Shown: positions 2,259 through 55,230 of the stretch, piece after piece
Position numbering within the stretch: the first letter of the stretch is position 1
Layout of the letters: each line of letters opens with the position of its first letter
Notes under the pieces: generated by a model
Databases searched by the model: none
Seen by the model: the letters and a program-made list of their open reading frames with translations, nothing else
What the model was told of the DNA's origin: nothing
Virus record (IMG/VR): IMGVR_UViG_3300010002_000010
Location: 27,949 to 91,948 of that record
DNA length: 64,000 nucleotides
Direction: 5' to 3' (one strand)
Source of the DNA: a virus
Taxonomy: Duplodnaviria; Heunggongvirae; Uroviricota; Caudoviricetes
Program-made: the position numbers and the translations under genes

Positions 2259-2302
2259 TCTGCACACGGTAAAATTCTGATTTTATTCTGCATAAATAGC
2301 CA

Positions 2303-2376: not shown

Positions 2377-2411
2377 ATAAATAGCATTATAATATGAGAG
2401 GAAGTAAAATT

Positions 2412-3401
2412 ATGGCAAAGAAACGTAACTCATTTTTTAACGAAGAAACCTATGCGATCGTAAATAAGAAATCAAAGGATATTGTAGAGGATTATAATCT
2501 CGAACTTAAATCAAAAAAGAAAGCGGAGAAAACTATCTATCAGTATATTGCTGATATTAAAATGTTCCTCTGTTATGTTCATGATAATTTTGATGACAAG
2601 TATCTATTGGATCTTAAGAAACGAGACTTCCGCCGGTTCTTCTTGGCTCTTCAAGATTCAGGAGCTTCGTCTGCACGGATCAACCGCGTCCAATGTTCGC
2701 TTCGGAACATCTTAGAATTTTGTATGGAAGACGATGACGAATACGAAGATTACGAAATCAATGTAATGAAATCCGTCAAAGGTTTGGTAAAAGAAGAAGT
2801 CCGCGAAATCCACTTCCTACCAAATGAAGATGTCGAATTGATCCTAGATTATTTGATTGAAAAACAAAAATACCAGCAAGCTTTATACCTGGCAATTAGC
2901 TATGAATCTGCAGGTCGCCGGAATGAAGTACACCAAGTTAAAAAAACGGACTTCCTAGAAAACAACCGAACCAATATTGTTCAAGGTAAACGCGGTAAAA
3001 AATTCTCATTGCTTTATTTTGGTCGATCAAAAGAAATTGCAAAACTGTATTTCGATCAACGCGGTGAGGATAATATTGATTCTCTTTGGGTTTCTGGTGA
3101 AGGTGAAGATCTTCGGCCTGCAAAATATGAAGCTCTTTATAACTGGGTTATCACATTCCGCCGGATCCTATTGCGTTTAACTGGAAAAGATATTGAGTTC
3201 AATCCCCACAGTTTACGGCATACAAGCCTCGAGAATTATTCTGATGGATCCCATTATGTATTAAAAGAATTGGGAAAAGACAAGTTCGATATTAATGTTC
3301 TTCGTCTGATTGCAAACCATTCGGACATCTCGACTACCGCAAATTATTTGAAAAATAAAGATGAAGAAGAACTTAATAACGCTTTTGGTTTTGGATCATA
3401 A
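2412..3401 (+). CDS. tyrosine site-specific recombinase (phage-integrase family); could be an integrase, a Xer-like resolvase or an SPbeta MrpR-like recombinase-fold regulator
   Basis: C-terminal HSLRHTS (HxxR) and a Tyr in STTANYL; start moved to the ATG at 2412, which has RBS gagaggaag (the track ORF begins at 2394). Confidence 0.8.
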   Translation: MAKKRNSFFNEETYAIVNKKSKDIVEDYNLELKSKKKAEKTIYQYIADIKMFLCYVHDNFDDKYLLDLKKRDFRRFFLALQDSGASSARINRVQCSLRNILEFCMEDDDEYEDYEINVMKSVKGLVKEEVREIHFLPNEDVELILDYLIEKQKYQQALYLAISYESAGRRNEVHQVKKTDFLENNRTNIVQGKRGKKFSLLYFGRSKEIAKLYFDQRGEDNIDSLWVSGEGEDLRPAKYEALYNWVITFRRILLRLTGKDIEFNPHSLRHTSLENYSDGSHYVLKELGKDKFDINVLRLIANHSDISTTANYLKNKDEEELNNAFGFGS

Positions 3402-6526: not shown

Positions 6527-6657
6527 TTTTACACGTCCTTTGTTTTTTTTTGTTTTAATCTTCCTTACATATATAATTATAACATGATCTGCGGGATTTG
6601 TGTTGATTTTATTGAAAATAATTAAAAAAACTTTTTTATTTATTTTTCTAAAAACTA

Positions 6658-6975: not shown

Positions 6976-7612
6976 TTCCCGTTTTTTAAATCTTAAAGTG
7001 CCGTTTTGAAATTGTCAGAATATTCCGAATGTTCCGTTTTTAATGCCGGAAATTTTTTCAATATTCCGAATTTTCGGAATTGTCTGAATATTCATAAAAC
7101 TCGAAGTGCCGTGAATTATCAGAAAATTCTGAATATTCGATCTATTATAATTTTTAAAATATTCTAAATATTCCGACAATTTGAAAACTCGAAAGATTTA
7201 GAATTATCTAAATATTCGAAATTATCTGAACATTCGAAGTTGTCAGAATATTCCGATCATTGTAAATTGTCAGAATATTTCGAATTGATCGACAATTTGG
7301 AATTGTCAGAATATTCAGATCATTCAAAATATTCATAATTTTCCGCCGACGAACCACCGCAAATTATTTTAATATTCCGAATATTACGAATATTCCGACA
7401 ATTCTAAATAGATCGAATTTTCTGAATATTCCGAATAATTTGAATTTTCCGAATTGTCAGACTATTCAGAATTTATTGAATTAACGCCTATGAAAGAATA
7501 TTCCGACAATTCAATTTTTACAATAATCGAAATATTCCGAATATTTTGAAAATTCAAATTGATCGAAAATTCAGAATATTTGTAATATAAAATAACTATT
7601 TTAAAATGTGAA
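6976..7612. repeat. repeat array R1: about 20 copies of the GAATATTC-centred motif (full site approx TTGTCAGAATATTCTGACAA, half-site GAATATTCCGACAATTC) in both orientations
   Basis: Counted directly; contains the variant GTGCCGTGAATT and the GC island CCGCCGACGAACCACCG at 7343-7359. Confidence 0.9.
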
Positions 7613-7621
7613 ATAAAAAAA

Positions 7622-7648
7622 ATGGGATTCTTTCGAATCCCGAATGAT
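7622..7648 (-). terminator. rho-independent terminator for 7656-7907
   Basis: gggattc-tttcg-aatccc with a T-run on the minus strand. Confidence 0.7.
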
Positions 7649-7655
7649 TTGTTTC

Positions 7656-7907
7656 TTAAAGTAAGTTATTCAATTCTTCAACATGTTTTGAAACTCGATT
7701 TGCTTGAAGAATGAAAATTGTCAATCCTTGTGGACTCATTTCATTTTCATGAAACTTAATTACGAAATGATTTGAGATCGGATTGTGAGATAATGTCACT
7801 TCTGAAATCGGATTGTCAAAGTGAAAACGGCCAAACGAATATGTCGCATTTGCATATCCTAATTCTTCAAGTTTTGAAATTACGTTTTGTACTGTTTTGT
7901 AATTCAT
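7656..7907 (-). CDS. hypothetical protein (83 aa), possible helix-turn-helix DNA-binding protein
   Basis: RBS aaaggacg; the N-terminal KTVQNVISKLEELGYANAT segment looks like an HTH (weak). Confidence 0.5.
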   Translation of the reverse strand: MNYKTVQNVISKLEELGYANATYSFGRFHFDNPISEVTLSHNPISNHFVIKFHENEMSPQGLTIFILQANRVSKHVEELNNLL

Positions 7908-8026
7908 TTTTCAACGTCCTTTATTTTGTATTTAAGGTCTTTTGTTTGTCTCAACCTTATATATTAATTATACATCTAAAGCCCACAAAAGTACACAGTT
8001 TTTGGAAATTAAATTGTAAAACTTTT

Positions 8027-8160
8027 AGAAACAATTCTGACAATTTAATATGATCGTGTCAGAATATTCTGACAATTCAAAAAAACTTAATTGTCGGAAT
8101 TTTCAGAATATTAAAACAATGAAGCCGCAATTGTCAGAATTGTTCTAAAAAATAATACAA
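8027..8160. repeat. repeat array R2: about 4 copies of the GAATATTC motif, including the perfect palindrome GTCAGAATATTCTGAC
   Basis: Read directly. Confidence 0.85.
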
Positions 8161-8179
8161 ATTAATTTCCGTAAAACTG

Positions 8180-8208
8180 TGTACAAAGCCCATTTTAAAT
8201 GTTATAAT
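8180..8208 (+). promoter_or_regulatory. plus-strand early promoter TGTACAaagccc-N-TGtTATAAT
   Basis: tgtaca at 8180-8185, tataat at 8203-8208, 17-nt spacer. Confidence 0.65.
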
Positions 8209-8260
8209 ATATATAAGAGGTTAAGTAATTGATCTCAAAAACGAAAAGAGGATGATGAAA

Positions 8261-8434
8261 ATGTTACAAGAAACTGCAAAATGTTTACAAGAACTTTCAG
8301 AAAACGGATTTTACAAATTTGAAAACGAAATGTTCGATTTTGAAAATGTTGTTGAATTAGTAAATCCAATTCTCAAATCTTTGAAAGTTGATTTTGAAGT
8401 AAATAACGAAAAAGAAGAAATCAAAATTTTCTAA
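8261..8434 (+). CDS. hypothetical protein (57 aa)
   Basis: Third in-frame ATG chosen (aagagg RBS, 9-nt spacing); terminator follows at 8436-8465. Confidence 0.5.
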   Translation: MLQETAKCLQELSENGFYKFENEMFDFENVVELVNPILKSLKVDFEVNNEKEEIKIF

Positions 8435-8464
8435 AATGAAAGAGTCGAAAGACTCTTTTCATTT

Positions 8465-8905
8465 TGTTTTCAATTGTCAGACAATTCTGAAAATTCTGAA
8501 TCGATCATTGTTTGAATTTTTGGAATATTCAGACAATTCGAAATATTCAGGAAATTTAGAAAAGTCGTTAAATTCAGAATATTCAGATAATTCAGAATAG
8601 TCGTTAAATTCAGACAATTCAAAATGGCCGCAATATTCGAACAATTCAGAATATTCTGACAATTCGAAATGATCTAAATATTCAGACAATTCAAAATATT
8701 CTGACTAATTAGAATTGGCGCTTAATTCAGAATATTCCGACAATTACGACAATTATGAATATTCTAATAATTCGAAATATTCAGAATTTTCTGATAATTT
8801 GCGGTGGTTCGTCGGCGGGACAAATAGATCGAAGATTGAGAATATTCCGACAATTCAGAATATTGAAAAAATTCACGGCACATTACTCAGAATATTCTGA
8901 CAATT
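8465..8905. repeat. repeat array R3: about 13 copies of the GAATATTC motif; contains TAATTTGCGGTGGTTCGTCGGCGG at 8794-8818
   Basis: Counted directly; the repeat-derived ORFs 8477-8689 and 8715-8900 are artefacts. Confidence 0.9.
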
Positions 8906-8907
8906 CC

Positions 8908-8933
8908 AAAATATAAAAAATCCCAAAATGGGA
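8908..8933 (-). terminator. rho-independent terminator for 8934-9233
   Basis: atccca-aaa-tgggat with a T-run on the minus strand. Confidence 0.7.
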
Positions 8934-9233
8934 TTATTTAAAAGATCTTCTGTATTGAGAAGTGACTTTACGTCTGAGATTTGAGAGCCATGTAGAGTCC
9001 TGTGTCGCTCTGTATGACTCAATAGCATTGTCATAGTCATCTGTATTAACTTCAAAAAAGTAGTGATTTAATACATCTTCATCTGCGACGAGAGCTAGTT
9101 CTTTATGATAGATACTATTTTCTTTTTTGAAAAACCAGATCTCATTTTCTCGTTTTTCAATTTCGTAAAATGCTCCAGAAATGATTGTAGGATTTGTAAT
9201 TGTTTTCATAAGCATAACTATTTTTCGTGGCAT
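8934..9233 (-). CDS. hypothetical protein (~99 aa)
   Basis: Start set to the third ATG (9233), which has 9-nt spacing from aaaaagg. Confidence 0.5.
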   Translation of the reverse strand: MPRKIVMLMKTITNPTIISGAFYEIEKRENEIWFFKKENSIYHKELALVADEDVLNHYFFEVNTDDYDNAIESYRATQDSTWLSNLRRKVTSQYRRSFK

Positions 9234-9360
9234 TTTCATCATCCTTTTTTCTGTATTTTAGATCTGCATGAAACAGCTCATAAGAAAATTGTACTACAAA
9301 ATTTCCGCAATGTACATAGTTTTTAAATAAAAAAAAATAAAAAGAATTTCCATAAAACTA

Positions 9361-9389
9361 TGTACATTTGCGGGAATTACTGTTATAAT
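9361..9389 (+). promoter_or_regulatory. plus-strand early promoter TGTACA-N17-TGtTATAAT
   Basis: tgtaca at 9361-9366, tataat at 9384-9389. Confidence 0.65.
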
Positions 9390-9443
9390 AAATATATAAG
9401 GTTAAGCAATTAATCTTAAATAAAAACGAAATGAGTTGAGAAA

Positions 9444-9686
9444 ATGTTAGTCAAAGAAACAGAGCAAGCTCTGAAAGATCTAATGAAACTTGACAAAGTA
9501 GAATTATTAACAACGAAAGGAAAAATTCAAACTTGGTTCGTGTGTGAAAAAAACGGACAACAAGTCATTCTAAGAACGTTTCACTACATGAGCAATAACA
9601 AAAAGAACGTTTCGATCTGTGAACTAATGACACTTGAAAACGGAAAAACAATTTGGTACCCACGAAAAAAATTCATAAATGTATGA
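9444..9686 (+). CDS. hypothetical protein (80 aa)
   Basis: Conserved leader upstream; terminator at 9688-9716 (aaagagccgcgaggctcttt). Confidence 0.55.
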   Translation: MLVKETEQALKDLMKLDKVELLTTKGKIQTWFVCEKNGQQVILRTFHYMSNNKKNVSICELMTLENGKTIWYPRKKFINV

Positions 9687-9719
9687 AAATGAAAAAGAGC
9701 CGCGAGGCTCTTTTCATTT

Positions 9720-10035
9720 GTCATTTTCAATTGTCGGAATATTCTAAATAATTAGAAAGATCGAAAAATTGAATTGTCAGAATATTCTTTCACAAGCGCT
9801 AATTCACAATATTCTGACAATTCAGAATTGTCATTAAATTCAGAATATTTAGAAAATAAAAAATGTTTTTAGATCATTTTGAATATTCAGATAATTTAAA
9901 ATATTCAAAAGATTGAAAAAATTCGCGGCTCTTAAAACAGAACGTTTTGATAATTCTAAATATTCTGACAATTTCGAATATTCTGAAAATTACGAATATT
10001 CAGAAGATTGAAAAAATTCACAGCACGTTAGCTTT
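9720..10035. repeat. repeat array R4: about 9 copies of the GAATATTC motif
   Basis: Counted directly. Confidence 0.9.
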
Positions 10036-10099
10036 TAAAGATCTAGAAAAAACAACATTATAATAGATAAAAATAATTTAAAGAACTTTTAAAAAAGCT

Positions 10100-20546: not shown

Positions 20547-20576
20547 GTCTATTCTTCCTTTCTTTTATAAAATTTC

Positions 20577-20716
20577 CATTTTATTCTATATAAATATATA
20601 CAGTTTGATCTGTATCGCACCATTTTAGCCCTGTATGGCTTCCGGAGCACTTTGAGTTGGCTGGTCTGTAAAATATAGCCTCCGGAGATCACACAGGACG
20701 ATCTGGAGCGAGGTTT
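20577..20716 (-). ncRNA. GC-rich structured intercistronic element E1 (~140 nt), homologous to 42996-43135
   Basis: Shared blocks TTATTCT..., TAGCCCTGTATGGC and CACACAGGACGATCTGGAGC; internal inverted repeats (TCCGGAG/CTCCGGA); stands out in AT-rich DNA. Confidence 0.5.
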
Positions 20717-21319
20717 TTATTTAAGTGTCATTTTTTCAAAACATTTGTCACAAATTGACAAATATGATGATTTTGCCTCGAGGAAAGTATCGCCATCTGT
20801 TACAACATGACCATCAATGATCCGAGCATTGTTTTCGGCGTAATCCAAGCAGTCTGGCATTTGACACTCTGTTACAATGAACTCAATTTTAGGTCGAGCC
20901 TTAATCAAGGTAGTAATTGCTGGGAATTGCTCATTTTTAAAATCTCGATCTAATCCATAAATCTTTGTATTAAGATTTTTAATTTTTGTCCATTCAATAA
21001 TAATCTCCATTTGATCTGGTGTTAAAAATTGAGCTTCATCAATTAAAACGGTTGAATTTTCTTTGATTCTTGAAAGATACACATTTAAAAAAACAACGCC
21101 TTCTTTTGAATTAATTGGAATGGCGGCGACTTCTCTTCCGTCTCGAGAAGTAATTTTTGTAAAATCAAGTGATACACTGTATGAATCTAGCGATCCAGCA
21201 AACAACCAAATCATTTCTATTTTGGTGTTTTTAGAAAGATCTGTTAAATAATCAATTAATTGCTTTGTCTTTCCCGCGCCCATTAAACCTGTAATGAAAT
21301 GTAAATTTTTGTTTTCCAT
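20717..21319 (-). CDS. tdk: thymidine kinase
   Basis: P-loop GLMGAGKT, VLIDEAQF and C-terminal Cys pairs; start set to the ATG at 21319 (7 nt from ggag). Confidence 0.85.
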   Translation of the reverse strand: MENKNLHFITGLMGAGKTKQLIDYLTDLSKNTKIEMIWLFAGSLDSYSVSLDFTKITSRDGREVAAIPINSKEGVVFLNVYLSRIKENSTVLIDEAQFLTPDQMEIIIEWTKIKNLNTKIYGLDRDFKNEQFPAITTLIKARPKIEFIVTECQMPDCLDYAENNARIIDGHVVTDGDTFLEAKSSYLSICDKCFEKMTLK

Positions 21320-21403
21320 CATCAATCTCCTATCAAAGTGCTTTATTCCTTACATTTATATTATACTTGATCTTTCAAAATGAGAAAGAAAAATAAAAAA
21401 AAA

Positions 21404-22811: not shown

Positions 22812-23438
22812 TTATTCTAAATATGAAGATTTAATAATGTCTTGGAGATGAGTTTTTAAGACTCGAATCCGAGAATGAGCCGCCTGTGTGGTAATGCCCT
22901 TAGCCTCCGCATAATCGACAACGGCATTTTTCTTTCGATCAAGGATCAACTCGAGAAGTTCCTTGTCTTTGTCTTTGATGAGAGCGTTTTCAATAATGGA
23001 CAATAGCTCTTTTCCATCATATGTTGATTCAACTGAATCTGATCCATCAATCAAAAGATCTTGTAACTCATCAGCAGACTCTGCTTCCGAAGTAACAACT
23101 TCTTTATTTAGTGAAATTTCTTTTCCGTGATCTTCTCGTTTTTTAGCTTTTGTTGGCTGAAGCACCTTGTCTCGGGCGCGATTCATTCTGTGGTGTAAGT
23201 AAGTTGAAAAACAATTTCCGGTAGTTGAATCATACCGATCATAGGCTACCCAAAGTTGCAAGAAAAATTCTTGTCGCATGTCTTCTTCATTGTATCGATT
23301 GAAAAACATGTTCTTATTCATATCGTGAACATTTTTCTCAATAAGAGGAATAAACATTTCGTGGACTTCTTCATATGTCAAATCTTTTAAAACTTTCTTG
23401 CCATCTTCCATAATGTAAAGCTTCTTTGTTTGATCCAT
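22812..23438 (-). CDS. sigma-70 family RNA polymerase sigma factor
   Basis: Region 2 (FFLQLWVAYDRYD...FSTYLHHRM) and a C-terminal region 4 HTH (GITTQAAHSRIRVLKTHL). Confidence 0.8.
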   Translation of the reverse strand: MDQTKKLYIMEDGKKVLKDLTYEEVHEMFIPLIEKNVHDMNKNMFFNRYNEEDMRQEFFLQLWVAYDRYDSTTGNCFSTYLHHRMNRARDKVLQPTKAKKREDHGKEISLNKEVVTSEAESADELQDLLIDGSDSVESTYDGKELLSIIENALIKDKDKELLELILDRKKNAVVDYAEAKGITTQAAHSRIRVLKTHLQDIIKSSYLE

Positions 23439-32801: not shown

Positions 32802-32830
32802 TTAGATCTCCTCCATTTAAAATGATGATT

Positions 32831-33457
32831 TTATTCCGGGTTTTCTTCCACTTCTAGCAAATCAATTGTTCCGTTGAGTAAAACTTCTTCACAAAGTACG
32901 GCAACTTTTTCTCGCGGTCCAAAGTATTCTCCAGCAAACAAACTTTGGTCTTGCCAGATTTTAATCATTTGGCCATCTCGCATAGAATAAATCTCGCGGA
33001 CTTCTTCTTTAATTTGTCCTTTTGCATTAATAATAATATCAAAGACAGATCGGTCTTGATAATTTACTGTATGCAATTTAGGTTTTCCATCAACAATTGT
33101 TTCGTATACCTCTACAATATTTTTAAGTTTTAACTTGTTAATATCATCAACATAAAGAACATCTTTATTTGATACTGAGTTTAAGAAATTAAGATCTACA
33201 GTTTCATGCTCAAGAACAATTGGAGATTCCTCGCTATGTTTTTCATATCCAAGCATAGCCAATACAGGTTTTACCTCTGATGGGTGCAAGCGGAATCTTG
33301 GAGAAAAATTAGTGTTTACCGCAAAAATTTTACCACGGTTATTGTTAACTTTATAAATCATCATTGGATAAGGCCCAAAATGATGGGCGACTAATTTTGA
33401 TAAAAAGCTAAAAGCACTTTGATTTGTTGATCCTGTTTTCATATAAGACGTTGCCAT
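32831..33457 (-). CDS. hypothetical protein (~208 aa)
   Basis: Start at the ATG at 33457 with RBS ggaggaaaaataat. Confidence 0.5.
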   Translation of the reverse strand: MATSYMKTGSTNQSAFSFLSKLVAHHFGPYPMMIYKVNNNRGKIFAVNTNFSPRFRLHPSEVKPVLAMLGYEKHSEESPIVLEHETVDLNFLNSVSNKDVLYVDDINKLKLKNIVEVYETIVDGKPKLHTVNYQDRSVFDIIINAKGQIKEEVREIYSMRDGQMIKIWQDQSLFAGEYFGPREKVAVLCEEVLLNGTIDLLEVEENPE

Positions 33458-35968: not shown

Positions 35969-36216
35969 TATTTATCACCTAATTCATTTTCAAGTTCGTC
36001 AAGAGCCGTTTGAGCAAACTCTTTGCTTGCATTGATTGACTTAGAAGAAATTTCATTGAAAAATAAGAGCCGCTGTTTAGGATTCATTGGTTCTAATTCA
36101 GGAAATACTTTTTCTGCTAATTGAGCAACGCGATTAACCACATTTGATCGCTCTTCACCTTCGGTTGTTAAAGCAAGAATTACACCAGCTAAATAGAATT
36201 TTTGTTTGTTTTCCAT
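35968..36216 (-). CDS. hypothetical protein (82 aa)
   Basis: RBS aaggagga. Confidence 0.5.
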   Translation of the reverse strand: MENKQKFYLAGVILALTTEGEERSNVVNRVAQLAEKVFPELEPMNPKQRLLFFNEISSKSINASKEFAQTALDELENELGDK

Positions 36217-39321: not shown

Positions 39322-40998
39322 TTAGAAAATTAACTCTTCTGGTGCATCTTCTTTATAAGCTGATACCGATTCAGATAATGAATCTAAAATTACAGGGACT
39401 TCTCTTTCAACTTCAACCCCATGATCCAAATCTTCTGGTTGTAATTCTGGCGGCTCTGTCTGAAGCTCATCATCAAAATTAATAATTGTCTGTTTAATTT
39501 TGTCTTGCAAAATAAAGTCAAGATCCGTTACAAATAATACTTCCTCACGAAGTGTACCTAAATTCATATGAGTCCAAATAATAATATTATCTCGACCACC
39601 ACGGTTTTTGTAAACCCAATGAGAAAAGTTTGGTGTTTTGAAAAATCCACCTTCAAGGATATGCTTCAGTTCTTTTCGGTCATCATCCCGAACTTTAAAC
39701 GAGATCAATCCAAAATCAACCTTATCGGCAGTAGCTGATCCGCCACGCAAACTTGACGTATCACGGTTTTCCTTGTCTTTTGAGCTACGGTTTAACTGTG
39801 TTGAAGTTGTGATATACACATTATATTTATTGGCTAGGATTTTAAGAGCCGCCGAAAATTGCACTAAAATCTGATCTTCCCGAAGATTTGATCCAAATGC
39901 TGTTTGCATTGTACGAGAAAGTTTTGGCGTCATTTGAATATAGTCAAACGCAACCAGCTTAACTCCGTTCTCAATAATATGCTTTTCGATCAACATTTCA
40001 ATATCAGCAATAGAAAAATCGTCAATGTATTCCGCGTAAAGAGGTGCTCGACCTAATACCTCAATGCCCATTTCTAATCTTTCACGAGTTTTCCGATCGT
40101 AAAAACCATCTTTAATAACTTCTTCATCAATACCTGTAATAAATGCAAGCATTGTTGTTTGAAGCTCTTCTTTTTCTAGCTCAGTTGAGATAAAAAGTGT
40201 TGGCTCTGCATTTCCGTTGAAAGTCCAACCGCGGTCATATTCATAGATCATATCACAAGAAGCATTACAAATATCCATGATTGATTGCCGAGATTTACCT
40301 CCACCTGTGCCAGCCGAACGAAGCATTAATTTTTTGCCTCGCATTCCGCGGAAAACAGTATTGTAATAACTATTACGGAAAGGATAACCAAACTCTGGTT
40401 GCTCTTGCAGTTTATCCAGTAATGATCCAAGATCATCACCAGCACGGAATGAAACTGATTCTCTGCCCACTTGCCAAGAATCACGGATTTTCATCATTTT
40501 TAAAGTGTAATGCTCGATAATATCCTGGGTGCTCATTTTATCAATTACTTCAACACCCTGCTGAATGACACTAAGATCCTGATTGTTGTAATCACAAAGA
40601 TCAGACACATCAATTCCACTTTCAAGATACATCCGAAGCAAACTGAATTTTTTTAGCCGATCATAATTTGATCGGAATGTTTTTGTGTTTGTGTTTTCAA
40701 TACATTTTCTGACATACTCCAAGCCATTACCTTTTTCCCACTTTTTATAAAGGCTTGGATATGGCGCCAAATAATTATCAATATCAACCTCAGTAATCTT
40801 TGTTGTTTCTGATGAAGAGTATACCAGGTTGTTGATTGCATTGAAAATGATCTGATGAAATTCTTGTGCAAAATCCCGATCGCTTAAATCAACTTCGGGG
40901 CTACGAAGCTGTTGTGGGTTAATACAAAGATTACCAATAACTGAAAAAACTGATCGCTTTTGATTTAAAGCTGACGGTGTTTCGATTTTACTGCTCAT
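39322..40998 (-). CDS. dnaB: replicative DNA helicase (DnaB family)
   Basis: DnaB-like N-terminal domain; Walker A LRSAGTGGGKS; 558 aa. Confidence 0.8.
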   Translation of the reverse strand: MSSKIETPSALNQKRSVFSVIGNLCINPQQLRSPEVDLSDRDFAQEFHQIIFNAINNLVYSSSETTKITEVDIDNYLAPYPSLYKKWEKGNGLEYVRKCIENTNTKTFRSNYDRLKKFSLLRMYLESGIDVSDLCDYNNQDLSVIQQGVEVIDKMSTQDIIEHYTLKMMKIRDSWQVGRESVSFRAGDDLGSLLDKLQEQPEFGYPFRNSYYNTVFRGMRGKKLMLRSAGTGGGKSRQSIMDICNASCDMIYEYDRGWTFNGNAEPTLFISTELEKEELQTTMLAFITGIDEEVIKDGFYDRKTRERLEMGIEVLGRAPLYAEYIDDFSIADIEMLIEKHIIENGVKLVAFDYIQMTPKLSRTMQTAFGSNLREDQILVQFSAALKILANKYNVYITTSTQLNRSSKDKENRDTSSLRGGSATADKVDFGLISFKVRDDDRKELKHILEGGFFKTPNFSHWVYKNRGGRDNIIIWTHMNLGTLREEVLFVTDLDFILQDKIKQTIINFDDELQTEPPELQPEDLDHGVEVEREVPVILDSLSESVSAYKEDAPEELIF

Positions 40999-41555: not shown

Positions 41556-41572
41556 AAAACCTCCGAAGAGGT

Positions 41573-42058
41573 TTATAAATCTCTTAAAATTTCAAGATAG
41601 GTCTCCTTACGAAGACGAAGCCGCTCTTTTAAGACCATATTTTTTTCGTGTTTAAGATCAACGTTGACCTCTTCAATTTTCTGTCTAAGCTTTCTTTCAA
41701 CATTTGTTTCTGATTTTAGCGGTGAATCCCAGTTAATGGCCACCAAATTTAATTCCAAATCTAGTTGGGCAATTGCAAAAGAATTATGAGCTTCAAACTG
41801 CTCGGTAAGTTTTAGTAATTTTTCTTTTAGCTTAAAATGTTCTACTTCCGAATTTTCAAACTGTTGGGCTTTTGATAGATCGACTGTTGTTGTAAAAGTG
41901 ACATGACCAAGCGGATCCATGTTAATTTGTTTTACAAAATGGGGCTTTGATGAAGTTGCGGAATAAAACAATACAATAAACTGATTTCGTTTTTCAAATT
42001 GTTCTTTTACTTTTAGAAACCCGGTTAATACTTGGGCTGTTTTTTCAACATGACTCAT
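41573..42058 (-). CDS. hypothetical protein (161 aa)
   Basis: RBS ggaggt; ATGA overlap with the upstream gene. Confidence 0.5.
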   Translation of the reverse strand: MSHVEKTAQVLTGFLKVKEQFEKRNQFIVLFYSATSSKPHFVKQINMDPLGHVTFTTTVDLSKAQQFENSEVEHFKLKEKLLKLTEQFEAHNSFAIAQLDLELNLVAINWDSPLKSETNVERKLRQKIEEVNVDLKHEKNMVLKERLRLRKETYLEILRDL

Positions 42059-42342: not shown

Positions 42343-42661
42343 TCATTGGCGTTCCGCCACCACCATATTTTGATCCATAAGATTCATAGCAATCTTTTTG
42401 TTCTTGTACTTCACTAGCATTTTGAAGCCAAGTATAACTAGTACCGGTGCGAGGATTTTCTCTTACTCTATAATATAGGCCCTCTCTAATGTGTTCATAA
42501 TTGCTAGTTGCTTTTACATAAGTGTCAGATTTTGATCCGCCAAGATGAACAAGTTTTTGCCAAAGTCCATTTTCAGGTGATTTTAGCTTTTTAGCCAATA
42601 AAGATTCAAGATCTTCTAAAGTTAATTTTTTAATAACTTTGTTTAATTGTCTGCGGTTCAT
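42296..42661 (-). CDS. hypothetical protein (121 aa)
   Basis: RBS tggaggc. Confidence 0.5.
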   Translation of the reverse strand: MNRRQLNKVIKKLTLEDLESLLAKKLKSPENGLWQKLVHLGGSKSDTYVKATSNYEHIREGLYYRVRENPRTGTSYTWLQNASEVQEQKDCYESYGSKYGGGGTPMNESEFEIVWKDGKPV

Positions 42662-42678
42662 AATATGGCCTCCATTTT

Positions 42679-42975
42679 TTATTGAATATCTTTTTTGTAT
42701 AATTCATATTTATCTTCAAAATCCCTTGAAACAAATTTCGAGGCTTTTTGTATTCTATTGAACCAATAATCAGATATTGCATTAACAACTAATCTCGCAT
42801 TTTGTCTTACTAAAACACCTTTTTCATTCTTATGGGGTAAAGATATATTTCCCGCTTTATTTGCTTTTTTAAGTTTTTCTAAACAGTATAAGCATTCTTC
42901 TTCCATTTCTGATTGAAAAGGATCAAAGACTTCCAACATGTCATTTGTCATAAAATCTCTAAGTTTAGATTCCAT
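42679..42975 (-). CDS. hypothetical protein (98 aa)
   Basis: RBS gaggtg; preceded by the GC-rich element E2. Confidence 0.5.
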   Translation of the reverse strand: MESKLRDFMTNDMLEVFDPFQSEMEEECLYCLEKLKKANKAGNISLPHKNEKGVLVRQNARLVVNAISDYWFNRIQKASKFVSRDFEDKYELYKKDIQ

Positions 42976-42995
42976 TATTACACCTCGTAAAATTT

Positions 42996-43135
42996 ATATT
43001 TTATTCTGCATACGGTGTTTTAAATTGAGCCAGATCGCGTTAAACTAGCCCTGTATGACCTCCTAGCGGCCCTGAACCACTTCATTTAAGTTCAGGACTG
43101 TTAGGAAGCCACACATCGCGATCTGGAAGCAATTT
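42996..43135 (-). ncRNA. GC-rich structured intercistronic element E2, homolog of 20577-20716
   Basis: TAGCCCTGTATGACCTCC..., CCTGAAC/GTTCAGG stem and CACACATCGCGATCTGGAAGC shared with E1; CCAGATCGCG/CGCGATCTGG inverted repeat. Confidence 0.5.
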
Positions 43136-43140
43136 TATTT

Positions 43141-43611
43141 TTAAATGCGGTTTTCTGGTTTTTCTTCATGATAATTGTATATTTCTTTATACTCGTAATT
43201 TTCAATTACATAAATTGACATAACAACATCATTATCTTTGGAAACATACGATCGGCCTTTTTCATAATTCTCGATTGAGGCGCAATGCTCTCCGCATTTA
43301 TAAGTCGTTCTACAAGGTTCTCCCGTTTCTTTATTTTTTAAAATAATGTGTAGTGCAGAATACATTCTTTTTCTTGAATCCAAATTTACTGGTAACCATT
43401 CTTTTTTCCCGCTGACATTATTTTTTAAAATTTTTAAATTCTTTTCTTCACGAAGATCTCCTAAACTACTAACGTAGATTTCTCCAGCATTCGATTTTCC
43501 TAAAATAATTTGAACAGTATTCCCATTATCTTGAACATATTGAAAACCATATTCAAATTGCTTTTCTTCCATTCCTTTAATAATTTCGCTAAAAGTCATT
43601 TGCAATGCCAT
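43141..43611 (-). CDS. hypothetical protein (156 aa)
   Basis: RBS aggagga. Confidence 0.55.
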   Translation of the reverse strand: MALQMTFSEIIKGMEEKQFEYGFQYVQDNGNTVQIILGKSNAGEIYVSSLGDLREEKNLKILKNNVSGKKEWLPVNLDSRKRMYSALHIILKNKETGEPCRTTYKCGEHCASIENYEKGRSYVSKDNDVVMSIYVIENYEYKEIYNYHEEKPENRI

Positions 43612-43638: not shown

Positions 43639-43668
43639 TATTATACTTACAAATTCAGATCTGTAAAA
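43639..43668 (-). promoter_or_regulatory. conserved phage promoter (TATAATATAAaagtaag family)
   Basis: cttacttttatattatacttac read directly; terminator ataagcc-cgaa-ggcttat at 43683-43707. Confidence 0.55.
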
Positions 43669-43704: not shown

Positions 43705-43998
43705 TTATCTTTTTGTTAATGTTACCATGTATTTAAGAGCAGTACTCATTTTTTTAACAGGTCGAACACCAACCGGAATGTTGTCATTAGATCCTGAGTA
43801 AACATCTTCATAAACACAGAAGTTGTCTTTTTCATCTTCTGGGCACTCAATTACAAATGAGCGGTTGCCGTAGAAAAACATTACAGTTTCATCAATCGAT
43901 ATTACTTGTGTAAAACAATGTCCGTTGGCTCCTTCTTTTAAAAGTTTTTCTCCTTTCTCTTTGATCTGTTCAACAATGTTTCTTGTGTAGTCTGTCAT
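43705..43998 (-). CDS. hypothetical protein (~97 aa)
   Basis: Start at the ATG at 43998 with RBS ggagga; has a long GC-rich 5' leader. Confidence 0.5.
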   Translation of the reverse strand: MTDYTRNIVEQIKEKGEKLLKEGANGHCFTQVISIDETVMFFYGNRSFVIECPEDEKDNFCVYEDVYSGSNDNIPVGVRPVKKMSTALKYMVTLTKR

Positions 43999-44019: not shown

Positions 44020-44100
44020 ATTTAGGAGCATCTTCCGTCTTGGCGTCAATCTAGGTCGCTCAGGCTAATTGCCGTCGTGGCGTACTCCGCTCGGAAAGAT
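44020..44100 (-). ncRNA. GC-rich structured 5' leader between the TGTACA promoter and the 43998 start codon
   Basis: ~80-nt GC-rich block (ggcgtcaatctaggtcgctcaggc...gccgtcgtggcgtactccgctcgg) downstream of the -10 at 44127. Confidence 0.4.
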
Positions 44101-44126: not shown

Positions 44127-44155
44127 ATTATACTCTGTATTCCCACAACTGTACA
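44127..44155 (-). promoter_or_regulatory. TGTACA-N17-TATAAT promoter (minus strand)
   Basis: attata at 44127-44132 and tgtaca at 44150-44155. Confidence 0.6.
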
Positions 44156-46486: not shown

Positions 46487-47419
46487 TTAAGAACTACATG
46501 CTAAACAGTTATCTTCATATTTTTTATCCCAAGTACGAGTGTAGTAAGATGTCTTAATACCTTTTTTCCAAGCTCGAACATGAAGCGAAAGCAACTTTTT
46601 AGCCGATGTTCCTTGTGGTACATAGAAATTAAATGATGATGCTTGATCGACAAAAATCTGACGAGCCGCGTTATGGTCAATAGCAAATTCATGGGCAAGA
46701 CCTTCATCAGCTTTTTTCATTTTCATAGTTGGTTTGTAGTAATGCCATGTTACAGGGTTTAGGTTTGGCACAATCAATGGAAGCATGAAATCTTTTTTGC
46801 GCTCCATGAAGATTACATCAAAGATTGGATCAATTCCGGCGGTAGATCCAGCAATTACCGAAGTGGCTCCGGTTGGCGCAGGTGATCGAAGATAACCATT
46901 CCGCATACAGCGTGAAGCCATTTTTTGAACAATCTCCCATAAAGGGTGATTCAAATGACCATCTGCTTTTCGTTTTTCAAACCATTCACCAGTCTGCCAT
47001 TCAGATCCTTCAAATACTTTATAAGATCCTTTTTCTTTTCCAAGAATTGATGAGTTCATGATTGTATAAAGCATGATTTCTTCCTCAAGTTCCTGAATGT
47101 ATTTTGTGGCTTCTTCTGAATCCCAATCGAGTTGTTTATCAGCAAGCAAAGCCGCGATTCCTTGTTCTCCAGCACCAACAGCTCGATATTTTTTATTGGT
47201 AAACTCTGCTTGTGGAACAGGTGCTGTTTGTAATGAAATTACATTATCCAACGCTCGCATTTGAATTGCGATAATACGATCAAGAACGTCATCACGGACA
47301 ACATTATTCAGAACCAACGATGAAAGGTTACAGGTAACTAGATCACCAATTGATTTAGTAATGATTACTTTTTCATTAGCCCAATCAATCTCTTGTTGTT
47401 CAACATTTGATGGGGACAT
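46487..47419 (-). CDS. nrdE: ribonucleotide reductase alpha subunit NrdE, exon 2 (C-terminal part; true 5' splice boundary lies a few codons inside the frame, near ...QEIDW)
   Basis: ...EIDW...LVTCNLSSLVL matches the post-SNLC-x-EI region and the second catalytic Cys loop. Confidence 0.8.
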   Translation of the reverse strand: MSPSNVEQQEIDWANEKVIITKSIGDLVTCNLSSLVLNNVVRDDVLDRIIAIQMRALDNVISLQTAPVPQAEFTNKKYRAVGAGEQGIAALLADKQLDWDSEEATKYIQELEEEIMLYTIMNSSILGKEKGSYKVFEGSEWQTGEWFEKRKADGHLNHPLWEIVQKMASRCMRNGYLRSPAPTGATSVIAGSTAGIDPIFDVIFMERKKDFMLPLIVPNLNPVTWHYYKPTMKMKKADEGLAHEFAIDHNAARQIFVDQASSFNFYVPQGTSAKKLLSLHVRAWKKGIKTSYYTRTWDKKYEDNCLACSS

Positions 47420-48361
47420 GTTCTGCCCAATTTCAGTCCTGCATATTCCCTCTAGCTCGCTATGCTAGAAGCGTCACTCTTGGTGACTGCTATATGTTGC
47501 CATATAGAGTAGACTATATCATGATCTTAAATTAAGATCCCTTGCTTTTCCATTTAAGAGGTTTTACACTACCTTATTACGGTAACACCTCACCCCAATA
47601 GCTTGGGCTGTACTCTACTCCCTTAACCTTTCGGCGGTTTCGATAGTCGTTCGGCATTTATTAATCAATCTTATCAAGCATATTTCCAATCAGGATATTT
47701 TTCACTTTTTAACTTATACAGAACGCCACTCTTACTTTTATATCCTAACTTCTTCGCGGCTTCAGTAATACTTTCATATTCAATACTATTAATAATACAT
47801 TTTTTGGAATTTGCTTCTTTTACGCTGTTAATCATTTTTTGTGATTTTGGTTTACCATATTGATGGTTTCCAGATCCAGACATTTGATCCACTCTCATTT
47901 GTCTAATTCCTTCTTTATTTGGATGACCTGTAAAAACATCACCACCAATTGAAGAGAGTTTAATATTATAGAAGTCTTTTGAATTTACGGCATCGAACAT
48001 TAAAATATAATATTCTTCAACTTCTCTTAACTCTTTTTCATTATCACATTCATCAATAATGATCTTGTAAAAGTTTTCTTTCCCATATTTATTGATTGCT
48101 CTTTTTAAATAAACTCCGCTTCCTAAATACTTTTCCCATGAGTTTATTCTTGAATAAACACATTTTCCAACATATTTTTTACCAGTAAGTTTATTAATTG
48201 TGATATAAACAAAACCATATTTCAAGTTTTTATTCTCCATTCTTAAATGCCAATAAAAGAATGATAAGATTGATTAAATTTAGCACGGGATTGTCCTCAT
48301 GGGATATTCCCCGTTTAACAAGGTTTTTCGATAAGCTTTTCAGCTTAAAGGTGCTAAGAAA
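47420..48361 (-). mobile_element. group I intron (approximate bounds) in nrdE, carrying a GIY-YIG endonuclease ORF
   Basis: Exon 1 ends ...YSSNLC followed by a stop; the obligatory xEI continuation is found ~940 nt downstream; non-coding blocks flank the GIY-YIG ORF. Confidence 0.75.
47674..48240 (-). CDS. GIY-YIG homing endonuclease (intron-encoded)
   Basis: YGFVYITINKLTGKKYVGK (GIY...YVG motif); 188 aa. Confidence 0.8.
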   Translation of the reverse strand: MENKNLKYGFVYITINKLTGKKYVGKCVYSRINSWEKYLGSGVYLKRAINKYGKENFYKIIIDECDNEKELREVEEYYILMFDAVNSKDFYNIKLSSIGGDVFTGHPNKEGIRQMRVDQMSGSGNHQYGKPKSQKMINSVKEANSKKCIINSIEYESITEAAKKLGYKSKSGVLYKLKSEKYPDWKYA

Positions 48362-49783
48362 TTAACACAGGTTAGATGAGTAAATCATACCGGCATGTTT
48401 ATTTGGGTTATTACGGTTTACTGTATCGCGGTAGAACATATATGGTGTTCCTGTTTCAAGCTGAGAAATCTCAAACTTTTTAACAAGATCCAAAGCGTTT
48501 ACACGTGTTTTTGCTAATTCTTGGTTATCAATACATAATTGGTAATGATAAGTCCAAGCATGATCTGTTGGATTTGGTTTTTCTTTCTCACCAAGAAGCT
48601 TATTATCGTAAAAGTCTTCTAAATGGAATCCCATAACATCTTTGATTTCATGCGGATCAAACAAATACCAGTCGCCTCGTTTTTCAATTTGACGCATAAA
48701 TTCATCTGGAATTGTGATCCCTGTGAATAATTCATGAGCCCGTTCTGCCTTGTCACCGGTATTTAATCGCAACTCAAGGAAACGAACAATATCTTTATGC
48801 CAAATATCAAGATAAACAGCGATCGCACCAGGACGAACACCTAATTGATCGACTGAAACGGCTGTGTTATTTAATTGGCGGATCCAAGGAATTACACCTG
48901 ATCCAACACCATGGAACCCTTTAATCGAAGATCCTCGACCGCGAACTTTACCAAGATAGACACCAAGTCCAGCACCATTTTTACTGAAAGTTGCAATATC
49001 TGTATTGTCATCATAGATCCCGCGAAGTGAATCAGGTGTTGTAACAACGTAACAACTCGATAAACCCCCATCAATTCGTCCCGCATTTGATAATGTTGGT
49101 GTCGCCAGTGTGAGATAAAGATTTGATAATGCAAAGTACAATTCTTTGACATGATCCATTCGATCTTTTTTCTCTTCCATCATTAATGTCAAAGCCGCGA
49201 TCATAAACCGTTCTTGCGGTAGCTCATAAATCGATTTATCAAAATCTTTTACCAAATACCGATTTGCAAGTGCTTGGATTCCAGCAAAATCAAATAGTTC
49301 ATCTTTTGATGGATCAATCATTTGACCAGCAAGGATTAGATCTTCCCGGGTATAATTTTTTAATAATTCAGGTGTGTAAAGACGTTTATCTGTCAACGTT
49401 TTAATGAGGCCATAAAAATCACCATACATTAGTTTTGAATCATAAAAACGGTTTTTAGAGGCTCGCTTGTATAATTCTTGTTGAAAAATATATCGTGCCA
49501 TTTTTGTCCAGTTTACATTCAGTAATGTTTCGCTAGAAACTACACCATCTTCGTTTTTGATCCGATTAGCCAGAACAGTAGATTCTTGAATTAAAATCTT
49601 GCGGATGTCTTTGGCTTCAATATCCGGTCGTTGAGAAATTAAGCGGATTACTTTTTCAGCATATTCGCTTTTTGTTTCTTCTGGTAGTTTAACTTTTTCA
49701 AATCCTTTTCCAATAAAATCCATTAAACGTGAAGCGCTAAATTCCATTGATCGTTGCCCGTTATCTTTTAAAACCGTTGTCAT
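48362..49783 (-). CDS. nrdE: ribonucleotide reductase alpha subunit NrdE, exon 1 (N-terminal 473 aa ending SSNLC)
   Basis: Class I RNR alpha architecture ending at the active-site SNLC; RBS aaaggagag. Confidence 0.85.
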   Translation of the reverse strand: MTTVLKDNGQRSMEFSASRLMDFIGKGFEKVKLPEETKSEYAEKVIRLISQRPDIEAKDIRKILIQESTVLANRIKNEDGVVSSETLLNVNWTKMARYIFQQELYKRASKNRFYDSKLMYGDFYGLIKTLTDKRLYTPELLKNYTREDLILAGQMIDPSKDELFDFAGIQALANRYLVKDFDKSIYELPQERFMIAALTLMMEEKKDRMDHVKELYFALSNLYLTLATPTLSNAGRIDGGLSSCYVVTTPDSLRGIYDDNTDIATFSKNGAGLGVYLGKVRGRGSSIKGFHGVGSGVIPWIRQLNNTAVSVDQLGVRPGAIAVYLDIWHKDIVRFLELRLNTGDKAERAHELFTGITIPDEFMRQIEKRGDWYLFDPHEIKDVMGFHLEDFYDNKLLGEKEKPNPTDHAWTYHYQLCIDNQELAKTRVNALDLVKKFEISQLETGTPYMFYRDTVNRNNPNKHAGMIYSSNLC

Positions 49784-54723: not shown

Positions 54724-55230
54724 TCAATCTTTTTTAATCCACTTTTGAATTTTGATCGGGTAATCATTGCGGTCTAAATCATCAATAAGGGTTTCCTCTA
54801 CCATTTCAAATCCAGATAGATCCATATTAAAATAAGCATCCGCTTTTTCATATGAATGTTGGATCTCGGTGCGCCATAAAATTCGTATTTTACTTTGCAT
54901 TAATTCATAGATCTGCCCACCACCTATCACTATGGCTCCATTTGTTAGCCCCTGGAGCTCATGGTGAAGATTATCCAAGTTTGTGAAGAAAACAGTTCTA
55001 CCGTGTGATACAGAGCGATATGGTGCGAAGTTTTCTCCTCCGCGAGTTAAAACAATGTTTTTTCGATCTTTTAGCGGTACTGCTAACGATTTCAAGGTAT
55101 TTCTACCCATAATGACCGCCTTGCCCTTAGTTTTACTAATAAAGTGTTTCATGTCATCTCTAAAAGAACCGAGCAAATGGTTCTCATATCCAATGGCATT
55201 GTTTTGATCGCAAATAACAATCATTTCCAT
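54724..55230 (-). CDS. folA: dihydrofolate reductase
   Basis: VIMGRNTLKSLAVPLKDRKNIVLTR matches the DHFR core (IMGRKT...PLPGRxNIVLS); RBS aggagg. Confidence 0.8.
   Translation of the reverse strand: MEMIVICDQNNAIGYENHLLGSFRDDMKHFISKTKGKAVIMGRNTLKSLAVPLKDRKNIVLTRGGENFAPYRSVSHGRTVFFTNLDNLHHELQGLTNGAIVIGGGQIYELMQSKIRILWRTEIQHSYEKADAYFNMDLSGFEMVEETLIDDLDRNDYPIKIQKWIKKD

Follow-up and report, generated by a model that had tools for sequence, protein, structure and literature searches.

In enterobacterial operons, REP-type hairpins such as those of malE-malF are short (~35 nt), are bound by host proteins and occur in hundreds of copies, and little sequence specificity is needed for RNase III cleavage or for a hairpin to act as a barrier to exonucleases. 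The classic RNase III sites of Bacillus subtilis are characterized in PMC4838370, in statements citing Panganiban and Whiteley (1983) and Mitra and Bechhofer (1994), as relatively stable stem-loops with small internal bulges, and the early mRNA of phage SP82 is presented there as carrying such sites. In SP82 phage mRNA, mutation of the ribosome-binding site (RBS) led to a shorter half-life (Hue et al. 1995, as cited in PMC7509114), and polypurine or Shine-Dalgarno-like 5' stabilizers of Bacillus messages are represented by SP82 (Hue et al. 1995) and STAB-SD (Agaisse & Lereclus 1996), both as cited in PMC2358910. Here we describe a pair of intercistronic hairpins, E1 and E2, in an uncultured phage, which resemble these systems in several respects and depart from them in others.

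The window, by which we mean the whole 64-kb stretch of phage DNA that was analyzed, has a G+C content of 33.6% and carries almost all of its phage genes on the minus strand. It encodes a DNA polymerase III alpha-like polymerase, a DnaB-like helicase, a DHH phosphoesterase, gyrase/topoisomerase subunits and a ligase, in addition to a ribonucleotide reductase, a thymidine kinase, an endolysin, a sigma-like protein (22812-23438) and a tyrosine-recombinase-like protein. The nearest deposited phage is Geobacillus phage GR1 (L161), with 62% identity in the polymerase, the next closest being Staphylococcus and Enterococcus siphoviruses of 85-93 kb; a distant-mode nucleotide search of the INPHARED phage collection with 1.7 kb around E2 returned no matches. 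Transcription in the window is predicted to be punctuated by 16 near-consensus sigma-70-type promoters belonging to one family and by many ordinary intrinsic terminators.

E2 is a GC-rich hairpin of ~100 nt with ~35 interrupted base pairs, located at 43030-43126 on the minus (sense) strand in the spacer between the stop codon of a 156-aa ORF (43141-43611, minus) and the RBS GAGGTG (42981-42986, minus) of the downstream ORF (42679-42975, minus; ATG at 42973-42975), exactly where the initial annotation had placed it. Its RNA fold reaches -55.3 kcal/mol (z = -6.29), a stability attained by 0 of 200 dinucleotide shuffles, and ranks first in a 120-nt sliding fold scan of the whole window (mean -19.4, sd 5.4), the runner-up at 20601-20720 being its paralog E1. 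The hairpin is closed by P1, formed by the 10-bp inverted repeat CCAGATCGCG/CGCGATCTGG previously noted as ~70 nt apart, which is present at 43117-43126 and 43030-43039 with a spacing of 77 nt and occurs once in the window as compared to 0 expected from 100 shuffles. The CCAGAUC part of the 5' arm of P1 (CCAGAUCGCG, 43117-43126, minus) is invariant in 8/8 family members, and the register of the partner in the 3' arm (CGCGAUCUGG, 43030-43039, minus) differs in other lineages. An asymmetric 12-nt internal loop (GGGCUAGUUUAA, 43040-43051, minus), a junction variable across lineages, lies between P1 and P2. The P2/P3 stem pairs the 5' arm UGUGUGGCUUCCUA (43102-43115, minus), in which UGUGUG and CC are invariant, with the 3' arm UAGGAGGUCAUACA (43052-43065, minus), in which GGA and CAUA are invariant and a Shine-Dalgarno-like AGGAGGU is sequestered. 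The structure is capped by an apical stem-loop (GUCCUGAACU, a 10-nt loop and GGUUCAGGGC; 43069-43098, minus), in place of which unrelated sequence stands in E1; it includes the 7-bp stem CCTGAAC/GTTCAGG that had been reported with a 12-nt loop, and which indeed forms the apex of a more extensive imperfect inverted repeat of 26 nt (43052-43077 and 43090-43115). P2, P3 and the apical stem of E2 stack into ~26 bp broken by 1x1 mismatches, a duplex of at least about two turns of double-stranded RNA interrupted by small internal loops only, as expected of an RNase III substrate; the duplex of E1 measures ~20 bp plus P1.

The element has more than one part. The interval 42996-43135 originally assigned to it holds the hairpin, but its 42996-43012 portion belongs to a separate AT-rich palindromic box at 42988-43012 (minus; TATGCAGAATAAAATATAAATTTTA, core palindrome TAAAAT-N4-ATTTTA), which is nearly invariant in 8/8 elements and ends 1 nt before the RBS. 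Accordingly, both repeats described initially are real, but the hairpin is longer than was stated and the element runs on into the AT-rich box. The corresponding box of E1 (TATATAGAATAAAATGGAAATTTTA) lies at 20568-20592 (minus), and in general ~20-27 nt separate the hairpin from the box, which directly precedes the RBS.

The proposal that E2 is the second copy of a structured intercistronic element was borne out by the identification of E1 (20600-20716, minus; hairpin at ~20615-20711) as a genuine paralog, lying directly after the thymidine kinase gene (20717-21325) on the same strand and in the same stop-codon-to-RBS setting. E1 and E2 are ~22 kb apart and align without gaps over 136 nt at 75% identity. 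The proteins flanking the two elements showed no homology when E1 and E2 were compared, so that the pair does not represent a duplicated gene module. Utilizing a covariance model of the family (R1), exactly two copies, E1 and E2, were found in the window, with the full match to E2, comprising hairpin and short flanks, at 43020-43135 (minus; 139 bits, E = 1e-36). Searching 5.8 billion proteins revealed only three other relatives of the 156-aa protein encoded upstream of E2, and likewise three close relatives of the thymidine kinase; the contigs encoding them have an intergenic gap of 162-173 nt in the same place, with an ortholog of E2 or E1 inside. The family thus assembled consists of 8 distinct sequences from four phage lineages (that of the window and three others, also uncultured), all from read-archive assemblies or one JGI sample, and by the family covariance model each genome has exactly two copies, at orthologous sites.

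Model R1 detected no further copies in helicase-sharing IMG/VR relatives (43-61% identity), in GR1 or in 50 kb of SPbeta, and none in a further 10 kb of the late region of the same phage. The first exact-pattern scans demanded CATACAGGGCTA, which is not invariant in the family, and the JGI metagenome scan used such an over-strict pattern; in viral contigs and JGI metagenomes it produced only chance matches in coding regions of unrelated, mostly GC-rich contigs. Among IMG/VR viral contigs, one looser pattern gave more than 119 matches without the rest of the motif, another gave none, and another gave a single match in coding sequence, while a looser pattern applied to one genome per GTDB species yielded one exact match, in a Peribacteraceae metagenome-assembled genome (MAG), at which model R1 was negative. 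Taken together, the element is real, conserved and previously uncatalogued, and its distribution is limited to a small clade of uncultured phages of Bacillota type.

Established classes do not accommodate the element. Rfam 15 gave no match at the gathering score in the whole window, and at E values up to 10 only a chance match of E2 to a miRNA hairpin (23 bits, with a gathering score of 63) and none for E1; ARAGORN found no tRNA or tmRNA genes in the window. A small protein-coding ORF was rejected, as no frame is conserved across the homologs: each sense frame of E2 contains 3-6 stops, and the open stretch of 52-55 codons that the window, L160 and L157 show in their E1 copies is interrupted in L159. 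An intrinsic terminator was likewise rejected because the stem lacks a following U-tract in all eight copies (the sequence there is CUCAAUUUAAAAC in E2 and AUACAGAUCAAACUG in E1) and because neither element was called by the terminator scan, which nevertheless detected ordinary terminators nearby.

The folds of all eight sequences share one architecture, namely P1 with an invariant CCAGAU, P2 formed by UGUGUG and CAUACA with one G-U pair fixed in 8/8 sequences, P3 starting from CC/GG, and a variable tip. Standard pairs occupy 78% of the pair cells in the alignment, as compared to 34-45% when the partners are slid by 1-3 columns, and the observed pairing was reached by 0 of 500 shuffles. Six pairs are altered on both sides in the family alignment. 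The pairwise comparison of E1 with E2 for compensatory changes, suggested at the outset, shows an internal stem that has changed on both sides with pairing kept, from UA/AU in E2 to GC/GC in E1. The partner of P1 has itself moved: AUCUGG lies directly after P2 in L155 and L159; it is displaced by ~8 nt in the window, L153 and L154 (E2 copies), where the stem is extended by CGCG/CGCG; and the E1 elements of the window, L160 and L157 have lost two P1 pairs, compensated by a new CGC/GCG extension. The hairpin also exceeds the third codon positions of the adjacent gene in identity in six of six comparisons (for example, 0.98 vs 0.72 and 0.89 vs 0.65). From these patterns of sequence change we conclude that the element is under purifying selection for its folded structure, with few independent covariation events because the sample comprises only four lineages and two paralogs derived from one old duplication.

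At 43640-43667 (minus) lies a sigma-70-like promoter (TTTACA, 16 nt, TATAAT; 11/12 consensus matches) from which the 156-aa ORF, E2 and the genes beyond it would be transcribed, and the first terminator-like site predicted downstream of it by the terminator scan is at 41557-41574. E1 and E2 each lie 3' of the first gene behind a strong predicted promoter, and the scan placed no terminator-like site between either promoter and the genes downstream of the elements; nor was a convincing sigma-70 promoter match found on the sense strand inside or after the element. The stem begins 5-14 nt after the stop codon of the upstream gene (14 nt before P1 in the case of E2). In every lineage the upstream gene is constant for a given element, E2 being anchored to the 156-aa ORF throughout, whereas the downstream gene varies: three unrelated genes, of 98, 99 and 84 aa, follow E2 across the lineages, and an extra 46-aa ORF follows E1 in the window only. 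Such anchoring to the upstream gene amid a changing downstream gene is what a 3'-UTR-like determinant acting for the upstream cistron would show.

We tentatively favor the reading that E1 and E2 are intercistronic mRNA hairpins that serve as RNase III-type processing and stability determinants, a proposal that we hold to be quite possible though somewhat short of probable. It is based on structure, conservation, position and the absence of a terminator tail, from which we infer that the element would be transcribed through and cleaved, with an effect on message stability or expression. In the proposed mechanism, the element would be transcribed within a polycistronic operon, in the spacer after the promoter-proximal gene, and its long, slightly interrupted stem would be the kind of substrate that host RNase III cuts, while a hairpin left uncut would constitute a barrier to 3'-to-5' exonucleases. 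The outcome would be separation of the upstream cistron from the downstream cistrons, with the 3' end of the former shielded by the hairpin. More speculatively, the 3' arm of the stem would come to lie at the head of the downstream fragment, and GGAGG in it might bind 30S subunits and protect the new 5' end in the way described for the SP82 polypurine 5' stabilizer; this Shine-Dalgarno-like GGAGG is strong in only five of the eight copies and is replaced by GGAC in L157.

The invariance of CCAGAUC, of UGUGUG/CAUA and of the fixed G-U pair despite moved pairing partners hints at recognition by something more specific, and because such blocks are unexplained by a generic nuclease substrate, a specific-binding model stays alive. 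According to that model, which we consider unlikely but the most serious competitor, the element is a regulatory RNA whose conserved base (CCAGAUC and UGUGUG/CAUACA with the fixed G-U) is bound by a specific phage or host protein, and which would govern downstream translation, the processivity of RNA polymerase in a put/nut-like manner, or coupling to termination on the upstream ORF. It would account for an apical part that is free to vary and for two copies per genome, each behind the first gene of an operon, and, judging from the coordinates, the stem base would lie within reach of a ribosome that stops at the end of the upstream ORF. Against this, the neighboring ORFs carry no PHROG or Pfam annotation and yielded no candidate binding protein, no alternative fold hides a conserved RBS, since the downstream RBS and gene differ between lineages, and an antiterminator would have no terminator immediately downstream to act on. 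A more far-reaching version, which strikes us as a long shot, takes the hairpin base as a specific recognition module, to which a phage protein would bind or which would be sensed by a ribosome as it terminates translation of the upstream ORF, or the excised ~100-nt hairpin as a stable trans-acting ncRNA, which would act, for example, as a double-stranded RNA decoy; combined with the AT box, the hairpin would form a portable regulatory cassette marking gene-swap junctions. Termination itself might enter in another way: in GR1, the syntenic site 3' of thymidine kinase is occupied by an ordinary intrinsic terminator with a promoter behind it in place of the element, and the AT palindrome follows ordinary terminators at 2270-2294 and 7588-7603, in GR1 and upstream of SPbeta aimR, so that E1 and E2 could be non-canonical attenuators or terminators with a promoter-associated AT box, equivalent to the ordinary terminator-plus-promoter cassettes of the group. 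We regard this as improbable in view of the missing U-tracts and terminator calls described above, and of the distance of only 12-25 nt from the AT box to the start codon, into which no -35/-10 pair fits.

In a further reading, the element acts at the level of DNA, as an imperfect palindrome with AT-rich sequence next to it. It could then bind a protein or extrude a cruciform, signal replication or priming, or be a conserved recombination linker for gene swaps, reminiscent of the stem-loop-plus-promoter cassettes reported at shuffling junctions in T4-type phages. Folded with DNA parameters, the strands are of similar stability (-23.7 vs -21.0 kcal/mol), both folds being significant (z about -4.8); the replication genes lie between the two direct copies, which are 22 kb apart; sequence blocks are invariant independently of pairing; and the gene right after the AT box has been replaced by unrelated genes in different lineages. 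With RNA parameters, however, the sense strand is more stable than the antisense strand in 8/8 sequences, by 3.5-11.6 kcal/mol, and one-sided changes are mostly switches between Watson-Crick and G-U pairs on the sense strand, on which G-U oppositions outnumber A-C oppositions by 5 to 2 in E2 and similarly in E1, a modest excess. There are moreover no iterons, the element always fills the exact spacer from stop codon to RBS in the direction of transcription, and selection for pairing is not expected of a mere recombination linker, all of which makes the DNA-level reading quite unlikely in our estimation. Because the DNA folds are about equal on both strands and the G-U excess is modest, action of E1 and E2 as RNA rather than DNA is favored, not proven. 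A dispersed MITE- or REP-like repeat was also considered and rejected, and the related idea of a selfish or decaying repeat without function for the phage appears very improbable: a GC-rich, palindromic intergenic repeat in two copies is what it would predict, but the copies number only two, occupy fixed orthologous sites in four lineages, recur in none of the other phages, metagenomes and genomes scanned, are conserved above the level of third codon positions and show compensated changes, and no target-site duplication or terminal inverted repeat beyond the hairpin was noticed, albeit without a dedicated search. We retain processing and stabilization of the message as the preferred, if tentative, function of E1 and E2, with part of the probability assigned to none of these readings.

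GR1 itself, scanned for a comparable outlier hairpin, contains none, its strongest candidate having z = -3.8. A small GR1 hairpin without U-tract at 42650-42675, right after a stop codon and two genes downstream of thymidine kinase, has the 9-mer GUCCUGAAC in common with the tip of E2 and GGAGGAAAG in its loop; model R1 does not match it, and the shared 9-mer may be due to chance (~0.4 expected per 50 kb).

Several other features of the window and its relatives were observed in the course of the analysis. A GC-rich 5' leader of ~70 nt (44030-44100, minus) lies between a sigma-70-like promoter (44127-44155) and a 97-aa ORF (43705-43998), and combines three small hairpins with a closing stem, AUCUUUCCG/CGGAAGAU. 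L153, L154 and L155 have it in almost invariant form, although the nearby 156-aa ORF is only ~66% identical in L155, and it has no Rfam match; since the family covariance model is negative there, the leader is a different element from E1 and E2, and looks like a separate candidate cis-regulatory RNA. The large-subunit gene of ribonucleotide reductase is split in the window (46487-49783, minus) into ORFs 48362-49783 and 46487-47419, the 940-nt gap between them holding a 188-aa ORF (47674-48240), and is intact (789 aa) in L153 and L154; the gap is presumably an intron with a homing endonuclease, although Rfam intron models gave no match in it at the gathering score. The DnaB-like helicase is called with 424 aa in L153 (12927-14201), followed by extra ORFs, as compared to 558 aa in the window (39322-40998), so that a further insertion or split gene seems likely in the L153 lineage. 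Degenerate repeats of 9-nt periodicity (GAATATTCAGACAATTC...) extend over several hundred bases in three blocks ~1 kb apart at 7046-10055, amid short ORFs and terminators, and could be repetitive coding sequence or an iteron-like array.

The AT-rich palindrome reaches well beyond E1 and E2. TAAAAT-N4-ATTTTA occurs six times in the window (2270-2285, 7588-7603, 20568-20583, 32818-32833, 42988-43003 and 54877-54892) as compared to 0.17 expected, a ~35-fold enrichment, and is similarly enriched in GR1 (at 6618, 17362, 27052 and 37319) and in the IMG/VR relatives; its usual setting is just 3' of a terminator, or just 5' of a -35 box or an RBS. In view of this wide occurrence, the palindrome is a motif in its own right, with a broader distribution than E1 and E2, next to which it happens to lie. 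Its role is probably that of a regulatory site in DNA common to these phages, either UP-element-like or protein-binding, and, being found across a much wider phage group that includes GR1, the IMG/VR relatives and SPbeta, it may be the more general regulatory signal. In SPbeta (L162) it is found at 36171, upstream of aimR and 9 nt upstream of SPBRE, the operator of the tyrosine-recombinase-fold repressor MrpR (PMC10516654). Like SPBRE, the AT box is AT-rich, partly palindromic, ~20 bp long and recurrent just upstream of RBSs or promoters, and the phage of the window resembles SPbeta in its replication genes and in encoding a tyrosine-recombinase-like protein (2394-3401). Identity of the two sites was nevertheless rejected because their sequences are unrelated, SPBRE reading CAAATACAAAnAATATGTATATA in six SPbeta upstream regions and the AT box TATGCAGAATAAAAT-N2-AAATTTTA. 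MrpR is a precedent for a recombinase-fold protein that acts as a DNA-binding repressor (PMC10516654). The recombinase-like gene of the window (2394-3401, plus) has counterparts with 53-64% identity in GR1 and in the Enterococcus and Staphylococcus relatives, and the AT box at 2270-2294 lies ~100 nt upstream of its start codon.

If the preferred reading of E1 and E2 as processing and stability determinants is true, they would add one more phage case in which relative expression within an operon is set by RNA structure, a form of control with very few documented cases in Gram-positive phages, SP82 being the classic one. As a clean, selection-supported and uncatalogued RNA family, the element could join motif libraries, and it offers a defined substrate for probing how RNase III and RNase J act in a phage of Bacillota; coming from an uncultured phage, it is of limited practical use.

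Among described systems, E1 and E2 are most readily compared with the R sites of T7 and sites A-C of SP82, which are likewise intercistronic, located on the sense strand and present as several related copies per genome, and which likewise combine a long stem and small internal loops with the lack of a terminator tail, the copies sharing both sequence and structure. In contrast to those sites, the present phage has two copies only, the likeness drawn here is one of structure and position, and cleavage is a prediction. The GGAGG-like polypurine tract in the 3' arm of the hairpin, with no start codon after it, recalls the SP82 and STAB-SD stabilizers, and a cut within the stem, should the hypothetical processing occur, would leave the tract near the 5' end of the downstream fragment, as in SP82 and STAB-SD; unlike those stabilizers, it is strong in only part of the family (5/8 copies) and is base-paired in the intact hairpin. 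Finally, at ~100 nt, in two copies and specific to one phage clade, E1 and E2 differ from the REP hairpins, with which they nevertheless have in common the character of a GC-rich intercistronic palindrome able to protect the upstream message and to give unequal expression within an operon.
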